Counted from the stretch's first letter, positions 3,564 to 42,735 are shown. The stretch: DNA of 64,000 nucleotides from Candidatus Omnitrophota bacterium (GCA_041663665.1 JBAYMG010000006.1:1918-65917), one strand, 5' to 3'. Notes: generated by a model from the letters alone, not told the origin. A program made the numbers and translations.

Positions 3564-3567
3564 AAAA

Positions 3568-4695
3568 CTAATTCAATCCTTTCCGAAAACGCAAAGAACT
3601 TAAAGTAATAACGACTAACCCAATAAACAAAAGCGGCACCAACTGAGGCCAAAGTACTTCTATACCCACCCCTTTTAAAAAAACACTCCTGATAATTACC
3701 ATAAAATAACGCATAGGATTGAACACTGTAAACAACTGGACAACCTGAGGCATATTGGATATCGGGTAAGCAAAACCGGAAAGTAAAACTGCCGGCAAAT
3801 AAAAAAGAAATACCGACATATTTGCCTCCTGCTGAGTAGAGGATATCGTCGAAATAAACAAACCTATCCCCAGAGTAGTAAATAAATATATGCAGGTAGC
3901 AAATAACAGAAATAAAACATTTCCCCGCAAGGGTATATGAAACCAAAGCACACCCAGTATTGTAACCAGAACAACCTGAATCAACGCAATTATCCCAAAA
4001 GGCAAAAGCTTGCCAACGATTAGCTCAATCGGCCTTAAAGGGCTGACGGTTAATTGCTCCATCGTACCAATCTCTTTCTCTTTGACAATAGCCATAGCCG
4101 TTAACAAAAGAGACATCATAGTTACGATTGTGGCAATTACCCCAGGCAGGTAATAATTCCTGGAAATGAAATTTCCATTAAACCATGCGCGGTCGCGAAG
4201 CTCTACTCTAGGCACACTATTTGAAAATCCGGCTTTATCCGCCCGGTACTTAAGCAAGTTCTCCTGGTAAGTGCCAACCACTGCATTAGCATATCCCATA
4301 ATAATCATCGCGCTGTTTGAATCTGTTCCATCAAAAGCCAATGCAATACTAGCTTCCTTACCGGCATTAATGTTGCGGCCAAATCCACGGTCAATGCGGA
4401 TAACCGTGTTAACCGTACCTTTATCTAAAACATAATCCTGTTCCCGCTCACTAGAAATATATTTTTCCGGAACAAAATATTTAGAATAAGTAAACCTGCG
4501 CAAAAGGTCCCTGCTTTCAGCAGTGTTATCCTGGTCATAGATGGCAGTCGGGACATAAGTTATATCTTTATTGGCCGCATAACCAAATAAAATTATCTGA
4601 AGCAGCGGAGAGATAAAAATTATCACCTTCATCTGCCGATCACGGAAGATTTGCTTAAATTCCTTGATTAAAATTGCCTTTGCCCGTTCAAACAT
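3568..4695 (-). CDS. ABC-2 type exporter permease (YbhS/YbhR/YhhJ family)
   Basis: Family-typical N-terminus MFERAKAILIKEFKQIFRDRQ, a large periplasmic loop and 6 C-terminal TMs. The likely start is ATG at 4695, not the longest ORF. Confidence 0.8.
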   Translation of the reverse strand: MFERAKAILIKEFKQIFRDRQMKVIIFISPLLQIILFGYAANKDITYVPTAIYDQDNTAESRDLLRRFTYSKYFVPEKYISSEREQDYVLDKGTVNTVIRIDRGFGRNINAGKEASIALAFDGTDSNSAMIIMGYANAVVGTYQENLLKYRADKAGFSNSVPRVELRDRAWFNGNFISRNYYLPGVIATIVTMMSLLLTAMAIVKEKEIGTMEQLTVSPLRPIELIVGKLLPFGIIALIQVVLVTILGVLWFHIPLRGNVLFLLFATCIYLFTTLGIGLFISTISSTQQEANMSVFLFYLPAVLLSGFAYPISNMPQVVQLFTVFNPMRYFMVIIRSVFLKGVGIEVLWPQLVPLLFIGLVVITLSSLRFRKGLN

Positions 4696-16974: not shown

Positions 16975-19149
16975 TCACTTATTCGAAATTAAAACTTTAT
17001 ACAAATCTTCATTCGAGCGACAAGATAACATCTTTTGCCGATTTTCATCACTCATTAAAAAATTAGCTACTTCAGCCATGTGTTTTAAATATGGATAAGC
17101 AAAAGCTCTAGGAACTAAAGTAATCACAAATATCAAAGATGGTTTTTTGTCCAACGAATTAAAATCAACCCCTGCTTTTTTTATCCCGATTGCAGATACT
17201 AAATGGCTGACTTCATCGGTTTTAACATGCGGAAGCGCAATACCATCCTGCATCCCGGTTGAAATAATCAACTCCCTTTCAAGCAGATCCTTTAAAATTT
17301 TATCCTTGTTTTGATTGACACCCAGCTGGCCTGACCTGGCTAAAACATCAACTAATTCCCGCATAATTTCTTCCTTAGTATTACCTTTAAGATTTATTTC
17401 CACTGCTGCTTTGTTAATAATCTGGGAAAATTTTACGCGCCCATTCTTAACCTTGCCTTTATTTTCAAATATACTCCTGCCGATCTTCTCTTTATCCGGA
17501 AGAACTTCCAGATGTTTAATAATATATTCCAGATCAACTAGAACATCATAAAAAAGGGTCTGAATAAACGAACTATCACCGGCTGAACAGGAAAAGATCA
17601 AAGATTGCGGGGTATATTTCAAAACAATAAATGTTTGATCTTTTCGAATCTGGTAGATCTTCTCCGGGACCTCTGTAAGGTATATATAAAAATTTTCCCG
17701 TTTAAACGCCTCAATTACCCTAATTAAGATTAACTCCGAAGTCTCTAAATTAGGCATAGAATACTGAATTTCAGTTTGTTCAAGTCTAATTTTTAACTTT
17801 TTTCTTAAACCCGTCCCATCTAAGGCGAATAGTTTAGCTAAAAAAGGCGGCGTAACCAGGGTGGTAATTAATGTCATCATTACCGAAATACTAAAAATAT
17901 CACGCGGGATTATATTTGCAGAAAGCCCGATGCCGGCGATAATTAAAGCTACCTCTCCCCTGGGAATCATGCCCACGCCAATTCTTGTTGCGCCGATTAA
18001 GTTAAAATTACAAAATAAAGCCGGAAGCCCGCATCCGAATACTTTTCCCACTATGGCAAAAACCAGATACATTGAACTAAAAAGAAGAACCTTGGAGGAA
18101 AATATCTCTTGTAGATTAACCAACATGCCCATCACGCAAAAGAAAACCGGAATAAAAAATTTCTGCAGCACAGACAAATTTTCCTGAATTATATAAGAAA
18201 GATCAGTTTTGGAAAGAGAAAGCCCCATAACATAGGCACCAATAATCATAGCTAAACCTGATCTTTCAAATATACCTGCCAAAAATAAAGCTAAAGCCAA
18301 ACTAATAATAGAAATCGCGGCTTTATCTTTAAACTTTTTTAACAAACCACTTAACTGGCGGGCAAAAGTTATTCCGACAACTGTAAACCCCAACCAGATA
18401 ATAATCGCCTTTAGAGAAATAAAACAAACTTGTTTCCAGGCAACCTGCCCGCTCTTGCAGATACCAATAATAATCGCCAGGACGATAATCCCAATTACAT
18501 CATCAATAACCGCAGCTGAAATAATCGTAATGCCTTCCGGTGAATCCAGCTTCCGGCTGTCTGACAAAGTCCTGGCAGTAACTCCAACCGAAGTAGCTGT
18601 TGAAATAATTCCCAAAAACAACGGTACAGGATGGCCAAAACCATATTGCAGGCCAAAAACATACTTAGAAAATAAAACCCCGGCTAAATCTCCAAGGACA
18701 AAACTTAAAATTGCCCCAAAAAGAGCAATAAAAGAACCAGCTAAAGAAAACCTGAATAAAGTATCTATATCTGTTTCCAACCCAACAATAAAAAGCAAAA
18801 TAATCGAAGCAATTGTCGAAATACCATAGAGCTCGATCGAAACCGGAAATCCGGCATAAAGGGGAAAAAATCCCTGCGCTAAACCAGGAAGCTTGATCCC
18901 GCCTAGAAAATAAGGGCTGATAATGATCCCGGCAACTATTTCTCCAACAACTGTAGGTAATTTAAGTTTATTAAACAATACCCCGCCGGCTTTGGCAGCA
19001 AATATAATTATGCCCAATTGTAAAACTAAAACCGCCATACTATCAACAATATCTGCATGCGCCGGCACCTCTTGAGCATACAAGCTGGAAAATGACGCAA
19101 AGAAGAAGAATGCAAAAATTGTAAGTATAAAAATATTTTTTATTTTCAT
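16975..19149 (-). CDS. CPA2-family cation/proton antiporter fused to a C-terminal PTS EIIA type-2 (PtsN-like) domain
   Basis: Roughly 400-aa Na/H-exchanger-type membrane domain, then a linker, then the EIIA-2 signature GIALPHVKT with the phosphorylatable His. N-terminal signal-like sequence. Confidence 0.75.
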   Translation of the reverse strand: MKIKNIFILTIFAFFFFASFSSLYAQEVPAHADIVDSMAVLVLQLGIIIFAAKAGGVLFNKLKLPTVVGEIVAGIIISPYFLGGIKLPGLAQGFFPLYAGFPVSIELYGISTIASIILLFIVGLETDIDTLFRFSLAGSFIALFGAILSFVLGDLAGVLFSKYVFGLQYGFGHPVPLFLGIISTATSVGVTARTLSDSRKLDSPEGITIISAAVIDDVIGIIVLAIIIGICKSGQVAWKQVCFISLKAIIIWLGFTVVGITFARQLSGLLKKFKDKAAISIISLALALFLAGIFERSGLAMIIGAYVMGLSLSKTDLSYIIQENLSVLQKFFIPVFFCVMGMLVNLQEIFSSKVLLFSSMYLVFAIVGKVFGCGLPALFCNFNLIGATRIGVGMIPRGEVALIIAGIGLSANIIPRDIFSISVMMTLITTLVTPPFLAKLFALDGTGLRKKLKIRLEQTEIQYSMPNLETSELILIRVIEAFKRENFYIYLTEVPEKIYQIRKDQTFIVLKYTPQSLIFSCSAGDSSFIQTLFYDVLVDLEYIIKHLEVLPDKEKIGRSIFENKGKVKNGRVKFSQIINKAAVEINLKGNTKEEIMRELVDVLARSGQLGVNQNKDKILKDLLERELIISTGMQDGIALPHVKTDEVSHLVSAIGIKKAGVDFNSLDKKPSLIFVITLVPRAFAYPYLKHMAEVANFLMSDENRQKMLSCRSNEDLYKVLISNK

Positions 19150-21739: not shown

Positions 21740-21919
21740 GCACTCCCCCGATATCCTTAATAAAAAAAGCAAGCTCTCATTTCTGGACCAAGTATTCCGA
21801 AACTTTCGGAAACCCAATAGCAAAAACTATTGCCATACTTTCACCCGGCATGAGAACCTGCTCTTCATTAATAATAATTATTTCAAAACAAACAATCTCT
21901 TTATCAATTAGATTCTAAT

Positions 21920-30805: not shown

Positions 30806-31222
30806 CTATTTACGCAGCTCAATTTCACTACGCAGTTGTTTACAGATAATTCTTTCAATTTCTGCTTTTGTATCAGCCAAAGCAATAAGCTCTTCTTGTA
30901 GTTTTATGCGTTCAGCAGTTTCCTTCTTTAACTCCAACCACCTGCGCCAAGAAAAAACAGCAAAAACAATACTTAAAGTCAGGAACCCGACAATGACTTC
31001 ATCAACATAAACTATTTTATGCGGATGTTTCTCAAGGTAGCGGACAATAAAAATAAATACATCAAAAAAATATGAAAGAATCGATACAATAATTAAAACA
31101 ATACTCCCGGCGAACAAATCTTTAAGTGAATTTGAAAATTGAATTTTGTTATTTTTCTTTTTAATTTTTTGCATATTAACCCTTATTTTACTTTTTAAGC
31201 CCGACACTTTTACTATACTCAA
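30806..31222 (-). CDS. hypothetical membrane protein with C-terminal coiled coil
   Basis: ATGA overlap with the response-regulator stop; 2 TMs then a charged coiled-coil region. Confidence 0.4.
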   Translation of the reverse strand: MSIVKVSGLKSKIRVNMQKIKKKNNKIQFSNSLKDLFAGSIVLIIVSILSYFFDVFIFIVRYLEKHPHKIVYVDEVIVGFLTLSIVFAVFSWRRWLELKKETAERIKLQEELIALADTKAEIERIICKQLRSEIELRK

Positions 31223-31587
31223 CTTCCCCCGGTAAATTCTTTAATCTTAAATAACAAATCTGCCGGCTCAAAAGGTTTTAATATATAAGCATCCGCACCC
31301 ATCTCTATTATTTTTTCAGGAATACGGATAATGCTGGCGGTAAATATGATTATGGGAATTTGCTTGAATTCCGGATCAGCTTTGAGCTGTTTACAAAGAG
31401 TGCCTCCCTGCATATCCGGCAACAACAGATCCAGTAATATTAAATCCGGCTTGTTCTTTTTTAACACTTCCAATGCCTCTTCACTGCTGGCTGCCTGCAA
31501 AACTTCATATCCTGAGGTCTCAAGCCTAGCCACGGTAACAGCAAGTAAGTCTGGCTCATCGTCTACAATCAGAATTTTTTTAAGCAT
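31219..31587 (-). CDS. single-domain response regulator (CheY-like receiver)
   Basis: ILIVDDEP, phospho-acceptor Asp in LILLDLLLPD, conserved T/K positions. Confidence 0.85.
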   Translation of the reverse strand: MLKKILIVDDEPDLLAVTVARLETSGYEVLQAASSEEALEVLKKNKPDLILLDLLLPDMQGGTLCKQLKADPEFKQIPIIIFTASIIRIPEKIIEMGADAYILKPFEPADLLFKIKEFTGGS

Positions 31588-31729: not shown

Positions 31730-32080
31730 TTATTTACCGGCCTTAACCGTGATTTCTTTTAATAATTTCCCGCTGATACTGCAATAACCTTCGACAGATA
31801 GTATGTCGCCGTCTTTCACATCCGGAATCAGATAACTAACGGTTTGATTTTCAAAATTATCTTCCCTGGAAATAACCTGCTCAATAATCTCTTTACCATT
31901 TAAGCCTACATCAACCTTTTTAATATAATGAGTTAGCGGATTATTTGTATTGTGCATAATTATAGCTTTAAGTATTTTGGTATTTGGATCAAAATCAATC
32001 TTGATATCAGATGGCGGATGCGCATAAGCAGCTGAAACAACTGACATAAAAATAACCAAAAACATTACAATTTTTTTCAT
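31730..32080 (-). CDS. secreted hypothetical protein (116 aa, signal peptide)
   Basis: Signal peptide MKKIVMFLVIFMSVVSAAYA. Overlaps the upstream gene stop. Confidence 0.5.
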   Translation of the reverse strand: MKKIVMFLVIFMSVVSAAYAHPPSDIKIDFDPNTKILKAIIMHNTNNPLTHYIKKVDVGLNGKEIIEQVISREDNFENQTVSYLIPDVKDGDILSVEGYCSISGKLLKEITVKAGK

Positions 32081-32832
32081 ACCCGGCCTCCTTTGGTTAA
32101 TGATAATTTATTTAATAACGGAACAACGGCATTCATAGCCAACAAACTGAAAAGCTCAACATCAAACCTCGCTCCAAATTCAGTTAAAACAAAAATAAGC
32201 CCGGCAAGGCCTGCGCCGAAAAGATATTTTCCGATTGGTTTTACAGGTGAAGTCATTGGCTCAATGATCATAACAAATATATAAAAGTAACTTAATAAAC
32301 CAAAAATATTCCCCAAAGGAACCTTTTGATAAAATGCCTGAGTGCCGAATAATAATAAAGAAACAACAGCATAGCCGATAATTACTTCCGTTTTTCTAAT
32401 CCTCCGGGCAAAATAAAATCCAAAAGGTAAAAGCATGTACCAAAGATAGGTTCCTTTCCACTGAGTAGAAGCGCCAAAAACAATAAGCGTCAAAAATATA
32501 CCACAAGAGGCTGGGTTAAATATATGCTTCTTCCGGAAACGAATTACATGCTTAGAGAGAATGGCTAAAAATGAAGCTGCTATAAATCTCCACCACGCTT
32601 GGTCACTGGCAAGCACATAACCGATAATTAATCCCGTGATAATTGAGCTTTCGGTTACCTGAAAAACTTTTGTCCGAAGATACAGGATAACTGACTCTAC
32701 TGTCAAGCTTGAAACAACAGCAATAAATACTCCCGACAGAAATACAGGATCTTTATCTTTAAGCGACAGAAAAAAGGCAAAACCAATTAAATAGAGAATT
32801 AACTGGGTTTTAATAGATTCAAGTTTTAGCAT
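32077..32832 (-). CDS. polytopic membrane protein, possibly NqrB/RnfD-like (short)
   Basis: About 8 TMs. The HIFNPASCGIFL motif resembles the FNPAL motif of NqrB/RnfD-family subunits. Assignment is tentative. Confidence 0.35.
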   Translation of the reverse strand: MLKLESIKTQLILYLIGFAFFLSLKDKDPVFLSGVFIAVVSSLTVESVILYLRTKVFQVTESSIITGLIIGYVLASDQAWWRFIAASFLAILSKHVIRFRKKHIFNPASCGIFLTLIVFGASTQWKGTYLWYMLLPFGFYFARRIRKTEVIIGYAVVSLLLFGTQAFYQKVPLGNIFGLLSYFYIFVMIIEPMTSPVKPIGKYLFGAGLAGLIFVLTEFGARFDVELFSLLAMNAVVPLLNKLSLTKGGRV

Positions 32833-32894: not shown

Positions 32895-33848
32895 CTATTT
32901 AAGCTGCTCTTTTAACCGGTACATAACACCCGAAGCTATCTCAGGCTTAGGAAGGCCGAATTCACGCGCTGAGATAGTGACTTGAGTTGAGCCTTCCGAA
33001 AGTTTTTTTAGTTTTAAAATTACTTTTGCTCCGTCAACCTCAGCACTAATTAAACCATCGGCTTTATTTTCCTGCTGAACCTTTCCGGCAATTTTAATAG
33101 CTTTAAACCCGGCATCATAAGCTTGCTCTATCGTTAGGTTAAAAATCCCCTGAGCATAGTCCTTGCCTGTTAAGGTAAACACTACTCCAACCGGCAGAAA
33201 CGCCACACCGGCAAACATAGCAGCTCCGTACATTTTAAGTCCTTGGATACCAGCTACTTTTAATGGTTCCGATATAATTAAAACGATAAGCTGCTGAACA
33301 CTAGTAATATTTTTGTAAGTCTTTTTCAAATTAATATCATATACCTTAACTACCGATGAATTTCCCCCTGCACTATAATCCCTGCTTACCACTCTGCCCA
33401 TATCTAAACTTACAATGTCAATTTGGACAACCGGTTGTTTACCAGGTTTTTTTTCTTTTTTACCGGATTTTTCCGCAACTATTTTTAAAGAATCAACATT
33501 AAGTTTACCATCCTTATTCTTAACCATGCCTATTTCTTTAATTTCCAGCTCTAAATGCTTAAGATGAATCCTGCCGGTAACAAGAGCTTTCAAATTGCAG
33601 GCAACACCTATCTTAGGAATATCTACCAGAATATCCTTAGAAAACCCCTTAGGATTATACATCCTAAAATTAGATATTCTTACCGACTGCTTTATTATAC
33701 TTAGCGAAAGCCCGCCTATATGAGTAGGAGCGCCGGTAATGCTGCTTGTCACGGTGCCGATTAGCGACTTAATACAAAAATCCCTAATCCAGCAGAATAC
33801 AAAGAGCAAAACGACTACCAGGATTACTACCCTGATTTTTTTCTGCAT
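32895..33848 (-). CDS. membrane-anchored hypothetical protein, AsmA-like repeat pattern
   Basis: N-terminal TM then a beta-rich domain with AsmA-like NPKGF and DIPKIGV motifs. Confidence 0.35.
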   Translation of the reverse strand: MQKKIRVVILVVVLLFVFCWIRDFCIKSLIGTVTSSITGAPTHIGGLSLSIIKQSVRISNFRMYNPKGFSKDILVDIPKIGVACNLKALVTGRIHLKHLELEIKEIGMVKNKDGKLNVDSLKIVAEKSGKKEKKPGKQPVVQIDIVSLDMGRVVSRDYSAGGNSSVVKVYDINLKKTYKNITSVQQLIVLIISEPLKVAGIQGLKMYGAAMFAGVAFLPVGVVFTLTGKDYAQGIFNLTIEQAYDAGFKAIKIAGKVQQENKADGLISAEVDGAKVILKLKKLSEGSTQVTISAREFGLPKPEIASGVMYRLKEQLK

Positions 33849-34053: not shown

Positions 34054-34728
34054 TTAGCTTTTTATCTTGCCTAATAATCTTAATAACCCATCGAGAATAG
34101 TTAAGGGATGCGGCGGGCATCCGGGAATAAAAAGATCTACTGGAATAATCGTCTCCAGGCCTCCAGACACTTCCGGACTGCCAAGAAAAATCCCCCCGGA
34201 GATCGCACAGCTTCCCACCGCAATAACAATCTTCGGGCCTGGCATTGCCTCATAAGTTTTTAAAAGAGCTTCTCTCATATTACGGGAAATAGGACCGGTA
34301 ACTACAATACCATCAGCATGCCGCGGAGAAGCCACAAATTGAATGCCAAAACGGCCTAGCGCAAAAACCGGGGTATTTAAAACATTCAAATCCAGCTCAC
34401 AGGAATTGCAGCCTCCGGCTGAAACTTGGCGCAATTTAAGTGAGCGGCCAAAAATCCTCAACATTTCCCGATTAAGTGCCGCAGCCAAGACCTTTTCATT
34501 TTTCGTAATAATCAAATGTTCCCGTTTCGCTGCAGCCATTCGATAATCATTCGAATATCTCACATCGCTATCCGGAATAAAAGTTATCTTTCCTATGTCC
34601 AAACTTTCCGGATCCCGGGCAATGATCGGACAACCTCGATAACGCGCAGGAAAACTTGGGGCGTTACCTTTGGGGAAAGGCAATGTCCGGCACCCTTGTT
34701 GAAATAATGTTTTAATAATCTTTAGCAT
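34054..34728 (-). CDS. NuoB / group-4 hydrogenase small-subunit-like protein (4Fe-4S), Ehr-type S subunit
   Basis: GGCNSCELDL, GSCAISGG and IPGCPPHP cysteines match the HycG/EchC type (CxxC rather than the NuoB CC). Extra N-terminal extension of about 80 aa. Confidence 0.85.
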   Translation of the reverse strand: MLKIIKTLFQQGCRTLPFPKGNAPSFPARYRGCPIIARDPESLDIGKITFIPDSDVRYSNDYRMAAAKREHLIITKNEKVLAAALNREMLRIFGRSLKLRQVSAGGCNSCELDLNVLNTPVFALGRFGIQFVASPRHADGIVVTGPISRNMREALLKTYEAMPGPKIVIAVGSCAISGGIFLGSPEVSGGLETIIPVDLFIPGCPPHPLTILDGLLRLLGKIKS

Positions 34729-34740
34729 TAATGTTTTATA

Positions 34741-36261
34741 CTATAAGTCGTGCCCGCAATAAGATAAATTAAAGCTCTTATTGCATAATGGAAAATCAGA
34801 AATTTCCTGGTTGCGCATTGCCAAACTTAAAGCCGGCCAATTATGAAACGATGGATCTTTAATCTTGTACCTGGACAAGTTCCCCTGGGCATCTGTAATA
34901 CCAACATGTGCAATTTCGCCTCTCCACCCTTCAACCAGAGATATTGCAAGTGTATCTTTTGCCATTGAAGTTACCGGTGTAAAAATTTCCCCGCTGGGCA
35001 AAGACGGTAAAATCTTCAACAAAAATTCCAAAGACCGCAGCACTTCCTGACGCTTTACCAGCGCCCGGGAATACACATCTCCTGTTACACCCAAAGAAAT
35101 AGGAACATGATGAAACTGCCACATCCCTGAGGAATAATTAATCCGCACATCAGTCTCTAGCTGACTGGCTCTGCCCGCAGGACCAACCAGGCCAAGCATT
35201 TTTGCATCTTTCATCGAGATCGAGCCGATATCTTCAAAACGAGCCAAAACTGAAGACTGGCTAAATAAAAGATCACTAACAGAATCAAACTCTTTCTTAT
35301 ACTCTTTAAGTTTACGGCAAAATTCATTGGACATAGCAGCATCAATATCAAACAAAACACCTCCTGGACGGCATAACCCTTTACCGAACCTGTTCCCGAC
35401 CAAAGAAAGTAATAAATTCAGGTAGTCGCCCCGCATGCGCCCAAAATATGAACTTGTTGGCAAAAAACCTGCATCCATTCCCATGGCTCCCAAATCGCCC
35501 ACATGATTGGCCAGCCTCTCAAGCTCTAAACCAACCGCGCGGACCGCCTGCGCCCGGGAAGGAATCAAGCATCCGGAAAGAGATTCAATAACTTCGCAAA
35601 AAGCTATAGAGTGACCAAGGGATGTATCTCCGGCAATAGACTCGCTCAAAAGAACACTGCGCTTCAAATCTTTTCCACACATTAAAGGCTCGATCCCGCG
35701 ATGTTGGTACCCAAGCTGAATCTCCAAATGCAAGATTTCTTCACCATGGCATTGAAACCGAAAATGTCCAGGCTCAATAATACCAGCATGCACCGGTCCA
35801 ACACCCACTTCATGAACTTCCTCGCCACCCACAAAATAAAAAGGATAAGAACCAGGAATAGTCCGCTGTTTAATATCCGGCCAAAGATCAGGCACACCGC
35901 GGTAATTGGCATGATAACGCAAAGGCTTAAGCCACGGATGGCCAACAGGCATAATTGCCCACTGCTCAGCAATCTCCCGTTCAAACAAATTAGCCTGAAG
36001 CAAATCCTTAGTTAGAGATTCATAGCTCGGATATTCAGACAGAATTTTAGTTGATAATATCTGCAGTCCTCCCCCCTCATCTTCCCCCAGAATCGCAAAC
36101 AAACGCACATCCTGCCTGTCTTCCGGGCTGCCGAAAAAATTAATTAACCGGGCATCTAAACGGCAACGACGGATCACCTCAGCACGGAATTCTTGCGCCG
36201 TAAGCAAAGGAACATCCGTCAATGCAATATTACCGCCATTAAATAATTCCATAGATTTCAC
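34741..36261 (-). CDS. NuoC-NuoD / HycE-like large subunit lacking the canonical [NiFe]-binding cysteines (Ehr-type L subunit)
   Basis: GPVHAGIIEPGHFRF and HRGIEPL signatures of group-4 large subunits. The position of the RxCGxCxxxH motif reads SIAGDTSLGH. The C-terminus is DFPLCNKSFNLSYCGHDL rather than DPCxxCxxH/R. Confidence 0.85.
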   Translation of the reverse strand: MKSMELFNGGNIALTDVPLLTAQEFRAEVIRRCRLDARLINFFGSPEDRQDVRLFAILGEDEGGGLQILSTKILSEYPSYESLTKDLLQANLFEREIAEQWAIMPVGHPWLKPLRYHANYRGVPDLWPDIKQRTIPGSYPFYFVGGEEVHEVGVGPVHAGIIEPGHFRFQCHGEEILHLEIQLGYQHRGIEPLMCGKDLKRSVLLSESIAGDTSLGHSIAFCEVIESLSGCLIPSRAQAVRAVGLELERLANHVGDLGAMGMDAGFLPTSSYFGRMRGDYLNLLLSLVGNRFGKGLCRPGGVLFDIDAAMSNEFCRKLKEYKKEFDSVSDLLFSQSSVLARFEDIGSISMKDAKMLGLVGPAGRASQLETDVRINYSSGMWQFHHVPISLGVTGDVYSRALVKRQEVLRSLEFLLKILPSLPSGEIFTPVTSMAKDTLAISLVEGWRGEIAHVGITDAQGNLSRYKIKDPSFHNWPALSLAMRNQEISDFPLCNKSFNLSYCGHDL

Positions 36262-36266
36262 CTTTT

Positions 36267-37676
36267 TTACGCACCCACTAAAACAGTCGCCGCACGCAGT
36301 ACATTAACCAACGGTGTCGGCATCCATATGCCAATACCCACTAAAGCTGCAATCGAAACGATAATAGCCGCATTCATAAAAAAATTCTCCTTATTGGCTA
36401 AAACCGGTTTTGTCGATGAGCCATAAACAATCTCCAAAACAATCCGGGCAATCCCAATAAAAATAAAAGCCAGGCAGATGATAAAAAGAGCAGCCAAAAT
36501 ATAATGTTGACCAATAATTACGGCATTCAGAATCATCAGTTCACTGTGAAACGTCGCAAAAGGGAACATTCCTGTTCCGGCCAAAAGCGAAACGATCAAA
36601 AACGCTCCCGTCAGCGGATAAACATGAATAACACCCTTTATTTTATCAACCGATGATGAGCCGTATTTCTGAGCAACCGATCCGGCAGTTAAAAACATAA
36701 TTGCCTTAGCTATTGCGTTGTTAATCATATGAAACAATGCGCCAAATACACCAACTCCTCCTAAAGCCAAACCCAAAACAAGAATACCCATATGTTCAAC
36801 CGAAGAATACCCAAACGCCCTTTTAATATTTTTTTCACCTAAAATAAAAATAGCCGGCACCAAAAATGATAACAAAGCCATCATAATCAGCATTGAAGAA
36901 TAAAACTGGCTCAATCCAGTCTTATTACATATCTGCGCGACTCTAATCAATGCCAAAAAAGCACATTGCGTTAATACTCCGGACATTAAAACCGCCACCA
37001 TTCCGGTGGCCTGCCCGTAAACCTCCGGTTTCCAACTATGCATTGGAGCTAGCCCCATCTTGCAGCCATAACCAACCAATAAAAAAATAACACTCAGCTT
37101 TAACCAATTCACTGTCAAAGATGCTGCGCCGTTTAAAAGCGCAGGTAAAAGAAGAGAATGTAAATCATGCGCGGCAATCGCTAAGAAAAATGTGCCCATC
37201 AATGCCAAGGCAATACCCACAGAACAAACCAATAAATACTTCCAGGTTACATCCAGAGTTTGCTGGTTACGATGAAAACTAATCAAAGGAGCACTGAGGA
37301 GTGTAGTTGTTTCAACCGCTATCCACAAAAGGCCCATATGGTAGCTAAGCGAAACAACAGTCATGGTTGATAACAAAATAAAAAGACAGGCAGTAAAAGT
37401 CCGGTTACTGCGTTGCTCATGCTTAAAATAACCAACCATAAAAACAGATACAATAAGAAAAAGGAAGCTCACAACTGATAACAGAATCAACCCTAAAGAA
37501 TCAAGCACTAAATAGCCGTTAAATTCTGAAACTGGAAGCTTAAGCCAAAACGAAGAAACAATAATGGAATGAATAAAGGACACCGCGCACAAAAGCCCTC
37601 CGCGGAAGATACGCCTCACCGGAAGAAAAACAGCAAACGCACAAAAAAGCGGCAGAAAAAGCAAGATTAACAGCAT
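36267..37676 (-). CDS. antiporter-like membrane subunit (NuoN/HyfF/MrpD-like)
   Basis: 469 aa, about 14 TMs, with a conserved charged pattern in TM7/TM12-like helices. Confidence 0.75.
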   Translation of the reverse strand: MLLILLFLPLFCAFAVFLPVRRIFRGGLLCAVSFIHSIIVSSFWLKLPVSEFNGYLVLDSLGLILLSVVSFLFLIVSVFMVGYFKHEQRSNRTFTACLFILLSTMTVVSLSYHMGLLWIAVETTTLLSAPLISFHRNQQTLDVTWKYLLVCSVGIALALMGTFFLAIAAHDLHSLLLPALLNGAASLTVNWLKLSVIFLLVGYGCKMGLAPMHSWKPEVYGQATGMVAVLMSGVLTQCAFLALIRVAQICNKTGLSQFYSSMLIMMALLSFLVPAIFILGEKNIKRAFGYSSVEHMGILVLGLALGGVGVFGALFHMINNAIAKAIMFLTAGSVAQKYGSSSVDKIKGVIHVYPLTGAFLIVSLLAGTGMFPFATFHSELMILNAVIIGQHYILAALFIICLAFIFIGIARIVLEIVYGSSTKPVLANKENFFMNAAIIVSIAALVGIGIWMPTPLVNVLRAATVLVGA

Positions 37677-38329
37677 CAGAAACTTTCCCCTGTCTCAGAG
37701 CGGCTCTCAGCAACCGGTGCACGCTCAAACTCCTCATTAATATGATTAATGATAATTGCCATAATAAAAACAGCGACAAAAATATCCAGCAGAATACCCA
37801 TTTCAATAAGAGTCGGCATGCCGTCAAATAATAATAGGGCAAATAGAAAAATCCCATTCTCCATAATCATATAGCCCAACACCTGGGTCACCGCCCGGGT
37901 ACGCGTAACCATAATCATAAAACCTAAAAGAACTGTTGAAAGCGAACATGGAAGAACTAAGTTAGAAACCGCTTTTCCCGGTAACTGCAATGATAAAGAA
38001 ACCCAAAATGCCCCTGCAATCAAAAGCGATCCAAGGATAATCGATAAACCAAACCCGATAAAAGGTTTAACTTCCGAACGTATCGAAACATGGCGGATAG
38101 CCCAAAGTAAAATATAAGGCACTAATATCCCCTTAAAAACTATCGTAACAATCGCAATGGCAATAACCCGGGCGGAAAGGGCTTCTGCATGCAGAAAAAA
38201 TGGCACGCAGCCTAAAACAAAAGACTGCAGTGCGAAAATATGGATCATACCGACAATACGGTACGTCGCAAGAATAGCCAGCGCAAAAAACACAATGAAA
38301 ATACAGCCGGCATCAATCCAAGCTGTCAT
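37676..38329 (-). CDS. small membrane subunit, HyfE-like
   Basis: 217 aa, 6-7 TMs. Size and position match HyfE/EhrC-like subunits. Confidence 0.55.
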   Translation of the reverse strand: MTAWIDAGCIFIVFFALAILATYRIVGMIHIFALQSFVLGCVPFFLHAEALSARVIAIAIVTIVFKGILVPYILLWAIRHVSIRSEVKPFIGFGLSIILGSLLIAGAFWVSLSLQLPGKAVSNLVLPCSLSTVLLGFMIMVTRTRAVTQVLGYMIMENGIFLFALLLFDGMPTLIEMGILLDIFVAVFIMAIIINHINEEFERAPVAESRSETGESF

Positions 38330-38332
38330 ACT

Positions 38333-39259
38333 TTACCCCCTCCAGATTGTAATGACAAAACCAAAAAATGCTAAAGCAAAAGCAATTAACAACAAATTCC
38401 TTACACGGTTAAGCCTCAAACGCGCCATCGACGACTCAATGACTCCGACCAAAACGGCTAATCCCAGCATGCCGGTTAAAAATATCAGCATATCTTTAAC
38501 CGGATTACCAGTCTGAAATGGAATAATCAATATCATAACCAAGATCCCAGAGAACAGAAAAAGTTTCACTGCCGAGGCATAATGCATATACGCCAAATCC
38601 ACCCCGCTGTGATCCAGGATCATAACTTCATGAATCATGGTTAATTCCAAATGAGTATCCGGATCATCAACAGGAATCCGGCAATTTTCCGCAAGAAGCA
38701 CGATAAAGAAACTGGCGACAACTAAAAGCAAAACGGGATCCAAATTCCAAGGTATCAAAATATTAACCCCGATCATTTCGGATAAAGAAATACTCTGGGT
38801 CAGGCAAGCAAGCGTAATAAAATTCATAAAAAGCGCTAATTCCGATAAACATGAAAAAAAAGCTTCACGGCTGGCACCAGCGCCTTCCAGGCTTAGCCCG
38901 GTATCCAGGGCCGAAGCAATCATAAAGAATCTGGACAAAGCAAGCAAATAAGCCAATAAAAGGATATCTCCTGAAAACTGTAGAGGCGCCTTAAGTATAC
39001 CTAACGGTATTTCGAGAGAAACAACAAATACCGAAGCTAAAGCAACAACCGGTGCAGCTCGAAAAACCCAGGATGTAGTTTGGCTATAAATACACTGCTT
39101 CCGAGAAAGTTTAACCAGATCAAAATACGGCTGAAAAACCGAAGGCCCCTTCTTCCCGGCAAAGAATGCTTTAACCTTAACAACCAGGCCGACAAACAAC
39201 GGCGCAAGCAAAAATACGAATAACCAATGAATCAGAATTAAAAAAATACCAATCAACAT
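38333..39259 (-). CDS. NuoH/HycD-like membrane subunit
   Basis: FFAGKKGPSVFQPYFDLVKL matches the NuoH/HycD N-terminal signature; 8 TMs. Confidence 0.85.
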   Translation of the reverse strand: MLIGIFLILIHWLFVFLLAPLFVGLVVKVKAFFAGKKGPSVFQPYFDLVKLSRKQCIYSQTTSWVFRAAPVVALASVFVVSLEIPLGILKAPLQFSGDILLLAYLLALSRFFMIASALDTGLSLEGAGASREAFFSCLSELALFMNFITLACLTQSISLSEMIGVNILIPWNLDPVLLLVVASFFIVLLAENCRIPVDDPDTHLELTMIHEVMILDHSGVDLAYMHYASAVKLFLFSGILVMILIIPFQTGNPVKDMLIFLTGMLGLAVLVGVIESSMARLRLNRVRNLLLIAFALAFFGFVITIWRG

Positions 39260-39263
39260 AGAT

Positions 39264-41093
39264 TTATCTCATTTTCCAAACTAACAAAAATATTAAAAAC
39301 AAAAAGATGTACATTAAATAAATCTGGGTATATCGAATACGGCCATCATCAATCTTTTTAGAAAGAATGGCCAACCTGGAAAACAATGGACGAAATACAA
39401 AATCTTCAGCAGCATCACGCACCAAAGAATGCATCTGTGTCGGCAAAGGAAAATCCCCCTTCACTCGGCCACCATGGCGGCGTAAGAATAAAATATTTTT
39501 CACAAAATCCAAAATAGAATGCGCAAAGGAAGAAGACGTATACTGAAATCTAGAAGTCACTTGCGAAAAACCGCAGCTCCAAGTTTCCAAACGTGAAATT
39601 ACTAAAACCGGAGTTTTCTTTAATAAGTGCCGGCGTAAAAATATTAAAAACAAAACCAGCACAAGAAAGATAAAAAAACCGTTATTAACCATCGAAAGCG
39701 AAACTAAAATTCCTGAAAAATTAATACTCGAAGCTGCCACATGCGACAAGTATTCCCCAGCTAAAATAACTAAATTTACCGCGTATTTCGGGACAAAACC
39801 AATCCAGATGCAAAGCCCAGCCAAAACCAACATCGGGGCAATCATCAAAGGGGATGCCTCCCTCCTTATCGACAACACCAATTCTTTGCGTAATTTGCCT
39901 AAAAAAACAGTGCCATAAACCTTGGTGAAACATGCTAAGGCCAACGCCCCCATCAAAGCTAGAAATAAAATACCCAAAACACAAGCCACCATTCCAGCTA
40001 AAGGCAAAGTCAATAACCCCTGGAACAATCCGAAAAAAATAATAAATTCACTGATAAACCCATTAAACAATGGCAGCCCGCAAATAGCCAAAGCACCGAC
40101 AAGAAATAATGCACTGGTAATCGGCATAGACTTGGCTAATCCGCCTAATTGATCCAGCTGTCCGGTATGAGTTTTTTGAATAACAGAACCTGCGCCCAAA
40201 AACAAAAGCCCCTTAAAAATAGAATGATTTAAAACATGGAGCAACCCCCCCGCAAAACCAATAGTCGCAAGCAAAGGCAAAGCGTAACTCCGCCCCAATA
40301 AACCAACACCGAGTCCCAAAGCAATAATCCCGATGTTTTCAATACTGTGATAGGCTAAAAGTTGCTTAAGCTCATGCTGCCCTAAAGCATACAAAACACC
40401 CATAATCCCAGACACAACACCTGTCATGAGAAGCATATACCCGCACCAATCAGGAAATACGCCAACCATCCATAAAACACGGCAGATCCCATATATACCG
40501 ATCTTAATCGCCACCCCTGATAAAAGCGCAGAAACATGAGCTGGAGCTGCGGGATGAGCATGCGGCAGCCAAATATGTACCGGCAAGAAACCAGCCTTAA
40601 CACCAAAACCAAACAAAGCTAAAATAAAAACTGTACCGGCTAAAACCGGAGATAAATTCACCCGCGAGATCAAATCAAAGTTCATTGAGCCTGCTGCATG
40701 CGAAAGTAAAAAAAACATAATAAAAAGGAGAAATGTCCCGCAATGAGCCATGGCCAAATATAGAAAACCCGCTCTACGCACAGAGGCCTGCTCATCATCA
40801 AAGATAATCAGGAAGTATACCGCAATCGACATTGTTTCCCAGGCGCCTAAAAAAAGAATTACATTGTTAGCTGTAACAATAACAACCAACGCCAGTACAA
40901 GCAGGCAATAAAAAAAGATGTGTGCCCCAAGAGGCTTCTTCCCTTTATATGGCTGCAAATAACCTGCGGCATAAATCCCGGAACAGGCAACTAGAATGAA
41001 AATGCAAATTAAAAATAATAAGCTAAGCGGATCAACCTTAAACGAGATTTCTCCAAACGGAACCTGCCAGGGCAATTGAAAAATATTTTTCAT
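39264..41093 (-). CDS. NuoL/HyfB/HycC-like antiporter-like large membrane subunit
   Basis: 609 aa, about 16 TMs, Mrp/NuoL-type core. Confidence 0.85.
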   Translation of the reverse strand: MKNIFQLPWQVPFGEISFKVDPLSLLFLICIFILVACSGIYAAGYLQPYKGKKPLGAHIFFYCLLVLALVVIVTANNVILFLGAWETMSIAVYFLIIFDDEQASVRRAGFLYLAMAHCGTFLLFIMFFLLSHAAGSMNFDLISRVNLSPVLAGTVFILALFGFGVKAGFLPVHIWLPHAHPAAPAHVSALLSGVAIKIGIYGICRVLWMVGVFPDWCGYMLLMTGVVSGIMGVLYALGQHELKQLLAYHSIENIGIIALGLGVGLLGRSYALPLLATIGFAGGLLHVLNHSIFKGLLFLGAGSVIQKTHTGQLDQLGGLAKSMPITSALFLVGALAICGLPLFNGFISEFIIFFGLFQGLLTLPLAGMVACVLGILFLALMGALALACFTKVYGTVFLGKLRKELVLSIRREASPLMIAPMLVLAGLCIWIGFVPKYAVNLVILAGEYLSHVAASSINFSGILVSLSMVNNGFFIFLVLVLFLIFLRRHLLKKTPVLVISRLETWSCGFSQVTSRFQYTSSSFAHSILDFVKNILFLRRHGGRVKGDFPLPTQMHSLVRDAAEDFVFRPLFSRLAILSKKIDDGRIRYTQIYLMYIFLFLIFLLVWKMR

Positions 41094-41776
41094 TAAACTT
41101 TCCTTACTGACTTTGATTCTGCAACATGAAACGCGACAAGGATCTCTTCTCTGCTTACCTTGCGGCTTAATGCTGACTTAACACCTTCATCCTGCAGACA
41201 AAAAACCAGGCGCGATAATAATGATAAATGCTCTTTAAAAGAAGAAGACAAGATTACGAATAACGTATGCACGAACTCTCCATCTAAAGCAGAAAAATCA
41301 ACCGGCTTCTCCAAAAAAAATAGCCCAATCACCGGATCCATACCCGCAAAAACAACCGGATGCTTAACATGTGGAATAGCAATCCCATTGCCGATACCGG
41401 TAGTCCCGGCCTGCTGGCGGGATAAAAGCATTTCCTTTAATGGATTTTTTTGAACTTGCTCAGGCAAGGGCAAAAAATCCAGGACTTTATCCAAAATATC
41501 TCCACTGCTAGAACCTTTTAACCCGGAATAAACTCCCCCTCGCATAATAGCCGAAGAAACAGGATCCTGTCCGTGCCGGCTATTCTCACATAACTTCAGC
41601 ACTCCGGAAGTTAAAAGAATCCGCTTCTTTAAAGCCCACTCTAAAACTTCCACGGAATTAAAATAATACTGATCATTCGCCCTTAAGGCCGGCATTCCCT
41701 GGTTATTCAACCACTGGTAAAGAATCCTCTCTTCGATCTCAAACGCTTTTTCTATATCATGGAAAGTCAGTTGCAT
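41093..41776 (-). CDS. HTH (excisionase/MerR-like) domain fused to PTS EIIA type-2 (EIIA-Ntr/PtsN-like) domain
   Basis: N-terminal MQLTFHDIEKAFEIEERILYQWL helix-turn-helix. C-terminal GNGIAIPHVKH with the phosphorylatable His. Stop overlaps the first gene of the Ehr-like module. Confidence 0.7.
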   Translation of the reverse strand: MQLTFHDIEKAFEIEERILYQWLNNQGMPALRANDQYYFNSVEVLEWALKKRILLTSGVLKLCENSRHGQDPVSSAIMRGGVYSGLKGSSSGDILDKVLDFLPLPEQVQKNPLKEMLLSRQQAGTTGIGNGIAIPHVKHPVVFAGMDPVIGLFFLEKPVDFSALDGEFVHTLFVILSSSFKEHLSLLSRLVFCLQDEGVKSALSRKVSREEILVAFHVAESKSVRKV

Positions 41777-41781
41777 AAATT

Positions 41782-42120
41782 TTACCCCTCTCGGACAAGC
41801 CTTTCCAAAAGTTTTCCACTTCGCTTAAATTTCTTTCTCAACAACTCAGCAATGGGGCGCAGTATCTTAAAAACATCGCGATCGAGTAGCCGGTAATACA
41901 CGCTTTGTTTCTCCTGTCTGGCCGAAAGAATCCCCAAATCACGTAAAATTGCCAAATGACGCGATAAGCTCGACTGTTCGACTCCTAACTCTAGCACAAG
42001 CTTACCAACAGCAGCCTCTCCAGCCCTAAGGTATTCAATAACCTGAAGCCGGACAGGATGCGACAAACCCCTTAAGAAGTCAGCCTTAATTTTAAAAACC
42101 ATGTCATCGCCGTTTTTCAT
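41782..42120 (-). CDS. ArsR/SmtB-family transcriptional regulator (no metal-binding Cys motif)
   Basis: HPVRLQVIEYL...SSLSRHLAILRDLGIL winged HTH. Confidence 0.85.
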   Translation of the reverse strand: MKNGDDMVFKIKADFLRGLSHPVRLQVIEYLRAGEAAVGKLVLELGVEQSSLSRHLAILRDLGILSARQEKQSVYYRLLDRDVFKILRPIAELLRKKFKRSGKLLERLVREG

Positions 42121-42291
42121 TAATCCCTCCCTTAAGCCTTCTCTCCTTTTAAAAATACCTTAGGCTTTTGCCCAACCTGGCGATTAATTTTATCGAATAA
42201 ACCAGCCGCAGCAAAAAAACAACGGCCATTAAATTAACGCCTATTATATGTCAATTTTGTAATATGTAAATGTATATTATTTATAACAATT

Positions 42292-42735
42292 TCACTTATC
42301 CTGCCTGGCAGATTGTTGTAAAATCTGATTTGCAGCACAGGCGTCATCATCCTGATCATCGCCGCTTCCGGCATTAAGATTAGCCGGATTACTCTCCAGC
42401 TTGATTATGTCATTATCCGAATACATTGCAACTTTATCTTGATATTTGTTTTGATAAATCTTGCCTTCAAAAACATTTCCCCAGACATGAATATCTTTCA
42501 ATTGTTTCGGATCAACTGCCAAAGGATCCTGTTGAAGAACAGTAAAATCGGCAAGCTTGCCCACAGCAATGCTGCCAATCTCTTTTTCCTTTCGCAAGAC
42601 AAAGGCAGCGTTAATGGTAATGGTTTTAAGCGCATCTTTAACGCTTATTTTTTCTTCGGTCCCGGCAACTTTGCCGGACATAGTCAAGCGATTTACCGCG
42701 CACCAGACAAGCGTAAGCGGACTAGCTGGCGCCAT
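42292..42735 (-). pseudogene. C-terminal remnant of an amidohydrolase-family gene with a low-complexity acidic tail
   Basis: The protein ends with the GKLADFTVLQQDPLAVDPKQLKDIHVWGNVFEGKIY motif typical of metal-dependent amidohydrolase C-termini. It lacks the roughly 300-aa catalytic barrel. A stop lies 4 codons upstream of the ATG. Confidence 0.45.

Follow-up and report, generated by a model that had tools for sequence, protein, structure and literature searches.

We analysed a 64,000-nt stretch of DNA from Candidatus Omnitrophota bacterium (GCA_041663665.1 JBAYMG010000006.1:1918-65917), called the window below, and in it a 227-aa protein that joins a helix-turn-helix (HTH) to an enzyme IIA (EIIA) domain of the phosphotransferase system (PTS) and is encoded at the head of an Ehr operon. 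The operon lies on the minus strand and runs from arsR (42120..41782) through the HTH-EIIA gene (41776..41093) to six Ehr genes (41093..34054). A gap of 5 nt separates arsR from the HTH-EIIA open reading frame (ORF), and the stop codon of the latter has one base in common with the ATG of the next gene, which is HyfB/NuoL-like and encodes 609 aa (TAATG, 41091-41095). An earlier note, written from the sequence alone, had drawn attention to this ORF and its overlap with the first membrane-subunit gene, to the ArsR and Ehr-like genes on either side, and to a second EIIA domain elsewhere in the window. These were all found as described. It had also suggested phosphorylation-dependent transcriptional control, a proposal taken up further on. 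The features of the window are as follows, with the evidence for each in brackets.

42246..42271, unstranded: AT-rich boxes ATATGTCAAT and ATATGTAAAT at 16-nt spacing in the promoter spacer, probable ArsR operator (co-occurrence of motif and ArsR)
42243..42270, minus strand: sigma-70-like operon promoter, −35 TTTACA at 42265-42270, 16-nt spacer, −10 TATAAT at 42243-42248 (11/12 consensus matches)
41782..42120, minus strand: ArsR/SmtB-family regulator gene, 112 aa, no cysteine, first gene of the transcription unit (HTH_5; NF033788)
41093..41776, minus strand: HTH-EIIA gene, 227 aa, first conserved gene of the Ehr operon (ORF; PF00359, 67 bits; AlphaFold2 model, pLDDT 92.4; 787 homologues; synteny in 85/85 loci)
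41612..41776, minus strand: N-terminal MerR/excisionase-type winged HTH, residues 1-55, with clade-specific Q21, Y38 and S41 (fold, Foldseek, profile)
41102..41533, minus strand: PtsN-like EIIA-2 domain, residues 82-225 (profile against PDB sequences; Foldseek; TIGR01419 best but below cut-off)
41369..41371, minus strand: codon of His136, predicted phospho-acceptor in GNGIAIPH (sequence reading; conservation)
39264..41093, minus strand: Ehr antiporter-like subunit, HyfB/NuoL-like, 609 aa (Proton_antipo_M, 6.8e-55; NF005086, 8e-164)
38333..39259, minus strand: Ehr NuoH/HyfC-like subunit (PF00146, 1.3e-30)
37676..38329, minus strand: Ehr HyfE-like membrane subunit (NF008556, 3e-27)
36267..37676, minus strand: Ehr HyfF-like antiporter-like subunit (NF005044, 4e-85)
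34741..36261, minus strand: Ehr large subunit, NuoCD/HycE-like, without NiFe-binding CxxC motifs (NCBIfam; alignment A3)
34054..34728, minus strand: Ehr small subunit, NuoB-like, without NuoI-like ferredoxin motifs (NF005012, 123 bits)
16975..19149, minus strand: second EIIA-2 domain of the window (about 16987-17421), fused to a Na+/H+ exchanger (PF00999, 2.8e-50; PF00359, 2.7e-26)

Pfam recognises one domain in the 227 residues, PTS_EIIA_2 (PF00359; residues 89-213, E = 1.7e-18, 67.4 bits against a cut-off of 27), and neither a PRD nor an EIIB domain; the motif GNGIAIPHVKH, given in the earlier note for the phosphorylatable histidine, is present. The best NCBIfam match is TIGR01419 (PtsN), yet it scores 62.3 bits against a cut-off of 138.7, and NF008145 likewise stays below its own (48.7 against 221). 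A profile of the family searched against PDB sequences matched PtsN at 1.4e-26 and EIIA-Mtl at 3e-10, and Foldseek with the EIIA domain returned 3urr, 4gqx, 2a0j and 1a6j (E = 3e-9 to 6e-8, target-normalised template-modelling (TM) scores of 0.72-0.82). The protein is PtsN-like and not a PtsN orthologue. PtsN, the EIIA(Ntr) of E. coli, Pseudomonas and rhizobia, has the same fold, the GxGxAIPH motif, the arginine and the second histidine, and provides the best matches in both sequence and structure; in contrast to it, the window protein carries an additional N-terminal winged HTH and a helical linker, and its gene heads an Ehr operon instead of standing in the rpoN-ptsN-ptsO context. PtsN is not known as a DNA binder. 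DNA-binding regulators with an EIIA domain are familiar from MtlR, LicR and ManR, PRD activators of about 650-700 aa with a DeoR-type HTH, two PRDs, an EIIB-like domain and an EIIA(Mtl/Fru)-type domain, which are controlled by PTS histidine phosphorylation. Compared with these, the window protein is a minimal two-domain form with another class of HTH, a non-sugar target and neither PRD nor EIIB.

The N-terminal domain is less conspicuous in sequence than in structure. HTH_17 (PF12728) scores 16.6 bits on the window protein, below the cut-off of 27, so that of the two domains which the earlier note had expected a domain search to return, PTS_EIIA_2 passed and HTH_17 did not; most homologues have a precomputed PF12728 match, weak or faint wherever it was rated in the loci. 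Its DNA-binding fold, one of the two points on which that note had staked its proposal, is nonetheless well supported by AlphaFold models, which are confident for the full-length protein (predicted local distance difference test, pLDDT, 92.4) and for the HTH domain by itself (91.8). The HTH is modelled as β-α-α-β-β-α, with a strand at residues 2-4, helices at 5-12 and 16-25, a hairpin at 31-40 and a helix at 41-50. The nearest solved folds in Foldseek are a terminase small subunit (7lwr), RacA bound to DNA (5i44), lambda gpNu1 (1j9i), BldC bound to DNA (6ama/6amk) and the RdfS excisionase (8dgl), with TM scores of 0.6-0.78 and root-mean-square deviations of about 2 Å; all are DNA-binding winged HTHs of the MerR-like or excisionase kind. 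By sequence, the family profile matched RacA at 2.3e-4 and BldC at 0.012. The BldC, RacA, Xis/RdfS and terminase small-subunit domains thus have the fold of the window HTH in common with it. The BldC/RacA/Xis-type proteins stand alone, at about 55-70 aa and without a sensor, whereas here the HTH is fused to an EIIA phospho-sensor, and in the clade of the window the basic DNA-reading residues are replaced.

All six assignments downstream were confirmed by Pfam and NCBIfam (HyfB-, HyfC/NuoH-, HyfE- and HyfF-like subunits, a NuoCD-like large subunit and a NuoB-like small subunit). Because AGDTxxGH replaces the N-terminal CxxC of group-4 hydrogenases in the large subunit, and because the C-terminal DFPLCNKSFNLSYCGHDL of that subunit is conserved across phyla (both in alignment A3), the module is, by the published definition, an Ehr-type complex (PMC6349859, PMC10284858). 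Complexes of this kind are widespread and related to complex I and to group-4 hydrogenases, and their function has been called unknown or never investigated (PMC7894505, PMC10284858, PMC6349859). The Ehr of Geobacter sulfurreducens, GSU0739-0745, has the subunit set of the window and a large subunit without NiFe cysteines (PMC7894505, PMC10284858).

The 227-aa protein is a member of a widespread, uncharacterised family of predicted one-component regulators. We found 787 homologues at E < 1e-5; after clustering at 50% there were 4492 matches, 115 of them below 1e-30, and among the best 150 of the 4492 almost all matched over the full length. The window protein itself is 100% identical to one protein from a Candidatus Omnitrophota metagenome-assembled genome (MAG). 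A genome scan with alignment A2 gave 80 loci and a further 9 were retrieved by exact protein. Judged from record titles, the scan loci belong to Omnitrophota, Planctomycetota, Verrucomicrobiota (including Lentisphaerae and Kiritimatiellae), Acidobacteriota (Thermoanaerobaculia), several Desulfobacterota lineages including Geobacteraceae, Myxococcota, Elusimicrobiota, Methylomirabilota, Binatia, Eisenbacteria and Goldbacteria. In every informative locus, that is, every one with downstream DNA, the HTH-EIIA gene lies directly 5′ of the six Ehr genes on the same strand (85/85, made up of 76/76 from the scan and 9/9 by exact protein, in at least 11 phyla). The first membrane-subunit ORF usually starts −4 to +50 nt from the EIIA stop, and the stop and start overlap by 1-4 nt in more than 25 loci. 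Where EIIA and HyfB are separated, the inserts are plus-strand ORFs of about 650-770 aa in most such loci, and the one tested (L104) is an antiporter-like subunit. In the Geobacteraceae locus L053, HTH-EIIA stands directly 5′ of the Ehr genes, the first of which comes after a plus-strand ORF of 668 aa, similar in size to the extra antiporter-like subunits of other loci. Clustering of all neighbouring ORFs revealed no further gene family conserved around the operon.

The association was also examined from the side of Ehr, using a large-subunit alignment on metagenome contigs. Among loci with enough upstream DNA, HTH-EIIA preceded the first antiporter-like gene in 22 of about 30 (~73%), and about 8 lacked it. 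An obligatory Ehr subunit is ruled out by these roughly 8 loci in 30 without the gene; HTH-EIIA is a frequent accessory, as a regulator would be. In one operon without it (L135), an ISL3-family transposase (3351-4595) lies immediately 5′ of the Ehr genes, and the regulator may have been lost by insertion. Our literature search (Ehr with PTS; HTH_17 with PTS_EIIA_2; GSU0736-0739) found no publication describing an association of HTH-EIIA with Ehr. The Ehr papers examined make no reference to an associated EIIA regulator, and a 2026 review of the nitrogen-related PTS (PTS-Ntr) makes no mention of an HTH, of DNA binding or of a fusion. The partnership of HTH-EIIA with Ehr across at least 11 phyla is new here.

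Enrichment of k-mers and dyads in the 200 nt 5′ of the HTH-EIIA gene brought out a candidate operator. Most loci outside Omnitrophota have 2-4 T(G/T)GACAT boxes in the promoter at 10-bp phasing. The pattern [GT]GACA-N5-[GT]GACA occurs 46 times in the −150..−1 regions (3.8 per kb) and 10 times in the other 1.35 Mb (0.0074 per kb). In about 50 loci, nothing in the entire 20 kb scores higher on a position weight matrix (PWM) for the box pair than a match at about −77 (forward), about −51 (reverse), or both. The usual layout is ATTGACATnnnTGGACAT, about 15 nt, then ATGTCCAnnnATGTCCA, convergent and with up to four boxes. In L069 and L039, the predicted −35 TTGACA falls on the first box, and the reverse boxes set in where the predicted −10 ends. 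Boxes at the −35 and at the −10/start point to autorepression, since their occupancy would occlude RNA polymerase. In the Verrucomicrobiota loci L028, L030, L047, L070, L076 and L080 an extra forward TGGACAT lies at about −14 from the EIIA start, beside the ribosome-binding region; it comes in addition to boxes at −75 and −49/−39.

Presence of the operator follows two arginines of the HTH. At a box-pair score of at least 14, it was found in 52 of the 63 loci with R21 and R38 and in none of the 21 without both (p = 4e-12); among the independent loci outside Omnitrophota that lack R21+R38 (L015, L029, L045 and L053) it was found in 0/4 (p = 0.002). This co-variation of operator and protein argues for an autoregulatory DNA-binding factor. 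TGTC/GACA-core direct repeats at about 10-bp phasing do resemble Pho-box-like sites, and response-regulator genes occur near some loci, so the T(G/T)GACAT repeats might be read by a different protein, such as an OmpR/PhoB-type response regulator at 10-11 bp phasing. We regard this as very improbable: no response-regulator family is conserved beside the operon, the boxes are confined to loci whose adjacent HTH has retained both R21 and R38, and the nearest structural relatives of that HTH bind direct repeats. BldC-type HTHs do so as head-to-tail multimers (PMC5859096), and head-to-tail binding of direct repeats, as in BldC and the excisionases, fits the 10-bp phased boxes of the HTH-EIIA relatives (PMC5859096). 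On the strength of synteny, operator and co-variation, a phospho-dependent DNA-binding regulator of Ehr is the best reading for the family.

Several points weigh against that reading. Binding to DNA, phosphorylation and the sign of regulation are all properties that we infer. The co-variation rests largely on one clade and is phylogenetically non-independent, and the signal is in part promoter sequence, the first box being the sigma-70 −35 consensus. The operator is typical of a core subfamily and is not universal, because in an independent and more divergent metagenome set no more than 5 of 21 promoters score at or above the operator threshold; in about 5 others, GACA/TGTC boxes are present but spaced differently. 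The operator was found in 0/8 of that set without R21+R38, and the two arginines look necessary, but not sufficient, for it. PTS partners are likewise scarce: tblastn with HPr, NPr, EI and HprK probe sequences located none of ptsP, ptsO, ptsH, EI, HPr/NPr or HprK in the 64-kb window or in the 85 loci, except an HPr in L027. The ptsP, ptsO and hprK genes for which the earlier note advised a search were thus not found in the window. Finally, PTS-Ntr is known mainly from Proteobacteria (PMC13104625).

The residues expected of a phosphorylated EIIA are nonetheless retained. R120, H136, K/R138 and H183 hardly vary, whether across 95 diverse sequences (29-62% identity) or across all loci examined. 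H136, whose conservation the earlier proposal depended on, occurs throughout the Omnitrophota clade (100%) and in 96% of the broad family, and the RH(K/R)H pattern recurs in all loci. The exceptional HPr, in a Planctomycetota MAG (L027, 20368-20640), is a genuine gene with the His-15 motif GFHARP and the Ser-46 motif GKSVMG. It lies 164 nt past the Ehr small subunit and is the only PTS phosphocarrier adjoining any locus. The conserved active-site residues argue for histidine phosphorylation of HTH-EIIA, as a prediction. It is decidedly unlikely, in our judgement, that the EIIA domain goes unphosphorylated in these organisms and is a ligand- or partner-sensing fold like the cytoplasmic domains of band-3/AE, with the histidine kept for structure. 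Such a role would suit the lack of PTS genes within the window, the score below the PtsN equivalog cut-off and a fold common to the non-PTS regulatory domains of anion exchangers; it sits poorly with four near-invariant residues across phyla, with the HPr gene adjoining the L027 operon, and with the second EIIA of the same genome, which keeps its histidine.

That second EIIA-2, in the Na_H_Exchanger fusion at 16975..19149, retains the motif GIALPHVK. A histidine-bearing EIIA on a Na+/H+ exchanger suggests that the organism uses EIIA signalling on ion transport. In E. coli there is a parallel, PtsN controlling the CPA1 antiporter YcgO (PMC11808508). A P-type cation ATPase (19184-21823) lies directly 5′ of the EIIA-fused exchanger (16975-19149) on the same strand.

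In the clade to which the window belongs, the DNA-reading part of the protein has changed. Across 119 Omnitrophota-clade sequences, identity to the window protein is 79% in the N-domain and 70% in EIIA. R21 is replaced by Q (84%), R38 by Y (94%) and R41 by S (98%). Acidic residues stand at positions 9, 13 and 15, and residues 1-55 have a net charge of −1.1, against +0.7 in the broad family. Canonical boxes were found in no Omnitrophota-clade locus, the window included, by pattern scans or PWM pair scans. A GACA-N6-GACA at 42052-42065 inside arsR, the sole match in 64 kb, is put down to chance (0.48 expected; 41/100 shuffles match). Phosphorylation-dependent transcriptional control, as the earlier note put it, is therefore well supported for the family, whose operator co-varies with R21/R38, and only in part for the window, with Q21/Y38/S41, a net acidic HTH and no canonical boxes.

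The window operon begins with an ArsR. Its 112-aa product matches HTH_5 at 2.4e-11 (Pfam) and passes the ArsR/SmtB model NF033788 (75.1 against 55 bits; NCBIfam), and the BigR, CmtR and SdpR models remain below cut-off. In contrast to ArsR/SmtB metalloregulators, it has, by reading, no cysteine and no recognisable metal site. An adjacent ArsR occurs in 6 of 18 Omnitrophota-clade loci and, outside Omnitrophota, hardly at all; it is an addition peculiar to this lineage and no conserved partner of HTH-EIIA. In the window promoter, ATATGTCAAT and ATATGTAAAT lie 16 nt apart at 42246-42271, with an imperfect 20-bp palindrome at 42246-42265. The same AT-rich element (31/34 nt) is found 5′ of SulP-arsR-EIIA in L004, and a palindrome ATATGTA(A/G)AT.AT(T/A)TACATAT lies between arsR and EIIA in L085 and L168, in L085 as the perfect 20-bp form ATATGTAAAT.ATTTACATAT. 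The AT-rich 10-mer has only 7 copies in 281 kb and is at the operon promoter in 5/6 loci with ArsR and 0/12 without (p = 7e-4). Because the box tracks with ArsR although HTH-EIIA is present in all 18 loci, it is most likely an ArsR operator, and AT-rich palindrome-like promoter boxes are typical of autoregulated ArsR operons. The only inverted repeat seen in 42100-42310 is a 10-nt AT-rich pair, 34 nt apart. In 42121-42291, where the earlier note proposed to look for the binding site, the repeats make up the AT-rich box, whose presence follows ArsR and not HTH-EIIA. In L009, an inverted pair TTGACATAT / TTTACATAT of the AT-rich, ArsR-associated type lies about 7.4 kb 5′ of EIIA (~1302-1315), and no ArsR gene was detected in that locus.

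The AT-rich boxes resemble the canonical half-site (T[TG][GT]ACAT) and lie at the operon promoter in the window, L004, L085 and L168. One could therefore suppose that the window protein is still an autoregulator and itself binds TT(T/G)ACATAT boxes, the change from R21 and K/R24 to Q21 and N24 having retuned TGGACAT to TTTACAT. Conserved polar residues on the recognition helix (Q21 in 84%, N24 in 100%) and the 79% conservation of the N-domain would be consistent with this. A switch of specificity is nonetheless unlikely, as the 10-mer occurs only with an adjacent ArsR, the HTH surface is now net acidic, and the L085 element is a perfect 20-bp palindrome. Palindromes of 20 bp are typical of dimeric ArsR/SmtB operators.

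The complex differs in Omnitrophota as well. The Omnitrophota small subunit (about 224 aa, 5-6 Cys) has no CxxCxxCxxxC motif, whereas that of all other phyla has 1-2 such motifs and 11-17 Cys, corresponding to a NuoI-like N-terminal domain fused to NuoB (L001-L013 compared with L015-L079); the Omnitrophota version is set apart from known Ehr by this lack of NuoI-like iron-sulphur (FeS) motifs. The N-terminus of the window small subunit (34054-34728) keeps a NuoI-like RTLPFP...RYRGCP remnant. In Omnitrophota the Ehr complex and its control appear to have changed together. Omnitrophota operons are also joined to a variable upstream set, [FKBP]-ArsR-[malic enzyme]-[SulP/STAS]-EIIA-Ehr. A SulP/STAS anion transporter, an NAD(P)-malic enzyme, or both often precede the HTH-EIIA/Ehr operon on the same strand, sometimes with FKBP and ArsR (L084 2332-5983, L166 2643-5987, L167 4586-6010, L002 8328-9980, and L004, L005, L007, L009, L011, L013 and L014). 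A SulP or DASS transporter is also found upstream of two Ehr loci that lack EIIA (L137 2422-4587; L126 36-635). The SulP, malic enzyme and DASS neighbours may hint at a link of Ehr to dicarboxylate or bicarbonate handling.

The persistence of a strongly conserved N-domain in Omnitrophota, after loss of the operator and the arginines, could be accounted for if the protein acts on other proteins. As a post-translational regulator or peripheral partner, EIIA (together with the remodelled HTH in Omnitrophota) would bind the antiporter-like subunits of Ehr or SulP/STAS and gate ions by phosphorylation state, DNA binding being secondary or lost. PtsN is a regulatory and not a transport EIIA, with ion-transport links to TrkA, KdpD and YcgO, and works by protein-protein contact, including on a CPA1 antiporter (PMC13104625, PMC11808508). 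The overlap of the EIIA stop with the start of the first membrane subunit, seen in the window and in more than 25 loci, the fusion of EIIA-2 to a Na+/H+ exchanger in the same genome, and SulP directly 5′ in many Omnitrophota loci agree with such a role. The conserved operator of the family as a whole argues instead for DNA binding, about a quarter of Ehr operons lack the gene, which makes it no obligatory subunit, cofactor motifs are absent, and the interaction itself is drawn by analogy to PtsN. We consider this explanation possible but less than probable.

On balance we lean, by a modest degree, towards a joint explanation in which the family consists of Ehr autoregulators acting through phospho-EIIA and the Omnitrophota circuit has been rewired. 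In the family, on comparative data, the HTH would bind 2-4 T(G/T)GACAT boxes, 10 bp apart, over the −35 and the −10/start of its own operon, and the protein would autoregulate, most likely as a repressor. HPr or NPr would phosphorylate His136 and so set the affinity for DNA, and Ehr expression would thereby be coupled to the phosphoenolpyruvate (PEP)-dependent phosphorelay. In the window, the arginines that co-vary with the operator would have given way to Q21, Y38 and S41 and the boxes would have gone, with transcription proceeding from a promoter whose AT-rich palindrome-like box tracks with the ArsR-family repressor encoded upstream. HTH-EIIA, on which purifying selection is still strong and whose translation is coupled to that of the first membrane subunit, would most likely still report the PTS phosphorylation state to Ehr, through a changed output: either a new DNA target, or a PtsN-like direct contact with the membrane complex or associated transporters. 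A bolder version is tentative and rather doubtful. It would make these proteins phylum-spanning, PTS-gated transcription factors dedicated to Ehr, with a defined operator; in Omnitrophota ArsR would have taken over the promoter, the conserved but acidic HTH would have become a docking module, and phospho-EIIA would gate the ion machine, or SulP/malic-enzyme partners, at the protein level.

Under the joint explanation, a conserved, operon-encoded PtsN-type sensor with its operator would be the first regulatory entry point to Ehr. By this account Ehr expression should track the PEP-dependent phosphorelay, and with it carbon, nitrogen or energy status; the regulator, the His136 switch and the T(G/T)GACAT operator are concrete reagents. 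PTS-Ntr-type signalling would then include a DNA-binding form and reach phyla far outside Proteobacteria. Omnitrophota would serve as a natural experiment, a clade that departs from the others in its DNA-reading residues, its operator, its upstream ArsR and the FeS content of its small subunit all at once.

Some further variation was seen in the Ehr genes. The HyfB-like subunit of the window (39264-41093) starts at position 62 of the HyfB profile; an N-terminal extension of about 60 aa, carried by most loci outside Omnitrophota and by L003 too, is missing from it. In many loci an extra ORF of about 650-700 aa separates the HyfB-like gene from the HyfC-like one, or EIIA from HyfB (L044 12740-14716, L104 3003-5003, L053 10681-12687). 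The extra ORF of L044 groups with antiporter-like subunits and that of L104 matches Proton_antipo_M; at least these two loci are a seven-gene variant of Ehr, the window being the six-gene form.

Around the operon, a 147-aa ORF just 5′ of the promoter (42292-42735) matches only the C-terminal quarter of Amidohydro_3 (profile positions 379-470 of 472) and is probably a truncated gene or pseudogene remnant. The leader of about 115 nt contains a terminator-like hairpin (42175-42160); a riboswitch or attenuator was considered there and set aside, with no Rfam match and a fold z-score of 0.05. On the 3′ side of the Ehr genes are an AsmA/DUF748-like protein (32895-33848) and a short stand-alone membrane protein of the RnfD/NqrB family (32077-32832). 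The next ORF, 31730-32080, has no Pfam match and an N-terminus that is hydrophobic and signal-like by eye. A 122-aa ORF (31219-31587) has the look of a CheY-type receiver, judged by eye only and without a Pfam scan. At the far end of the window, genes for a NikR-type nickel regulator (1880-2290) and a CbiM-type Ni/Co uptake component (69-758) flank a Phenol_MetA_deg-family ORF (888-1817). These NikR- and CbiM-type genes indicate that the genome handles nickel, yet the Ehr large subunit is without a NiFe site.

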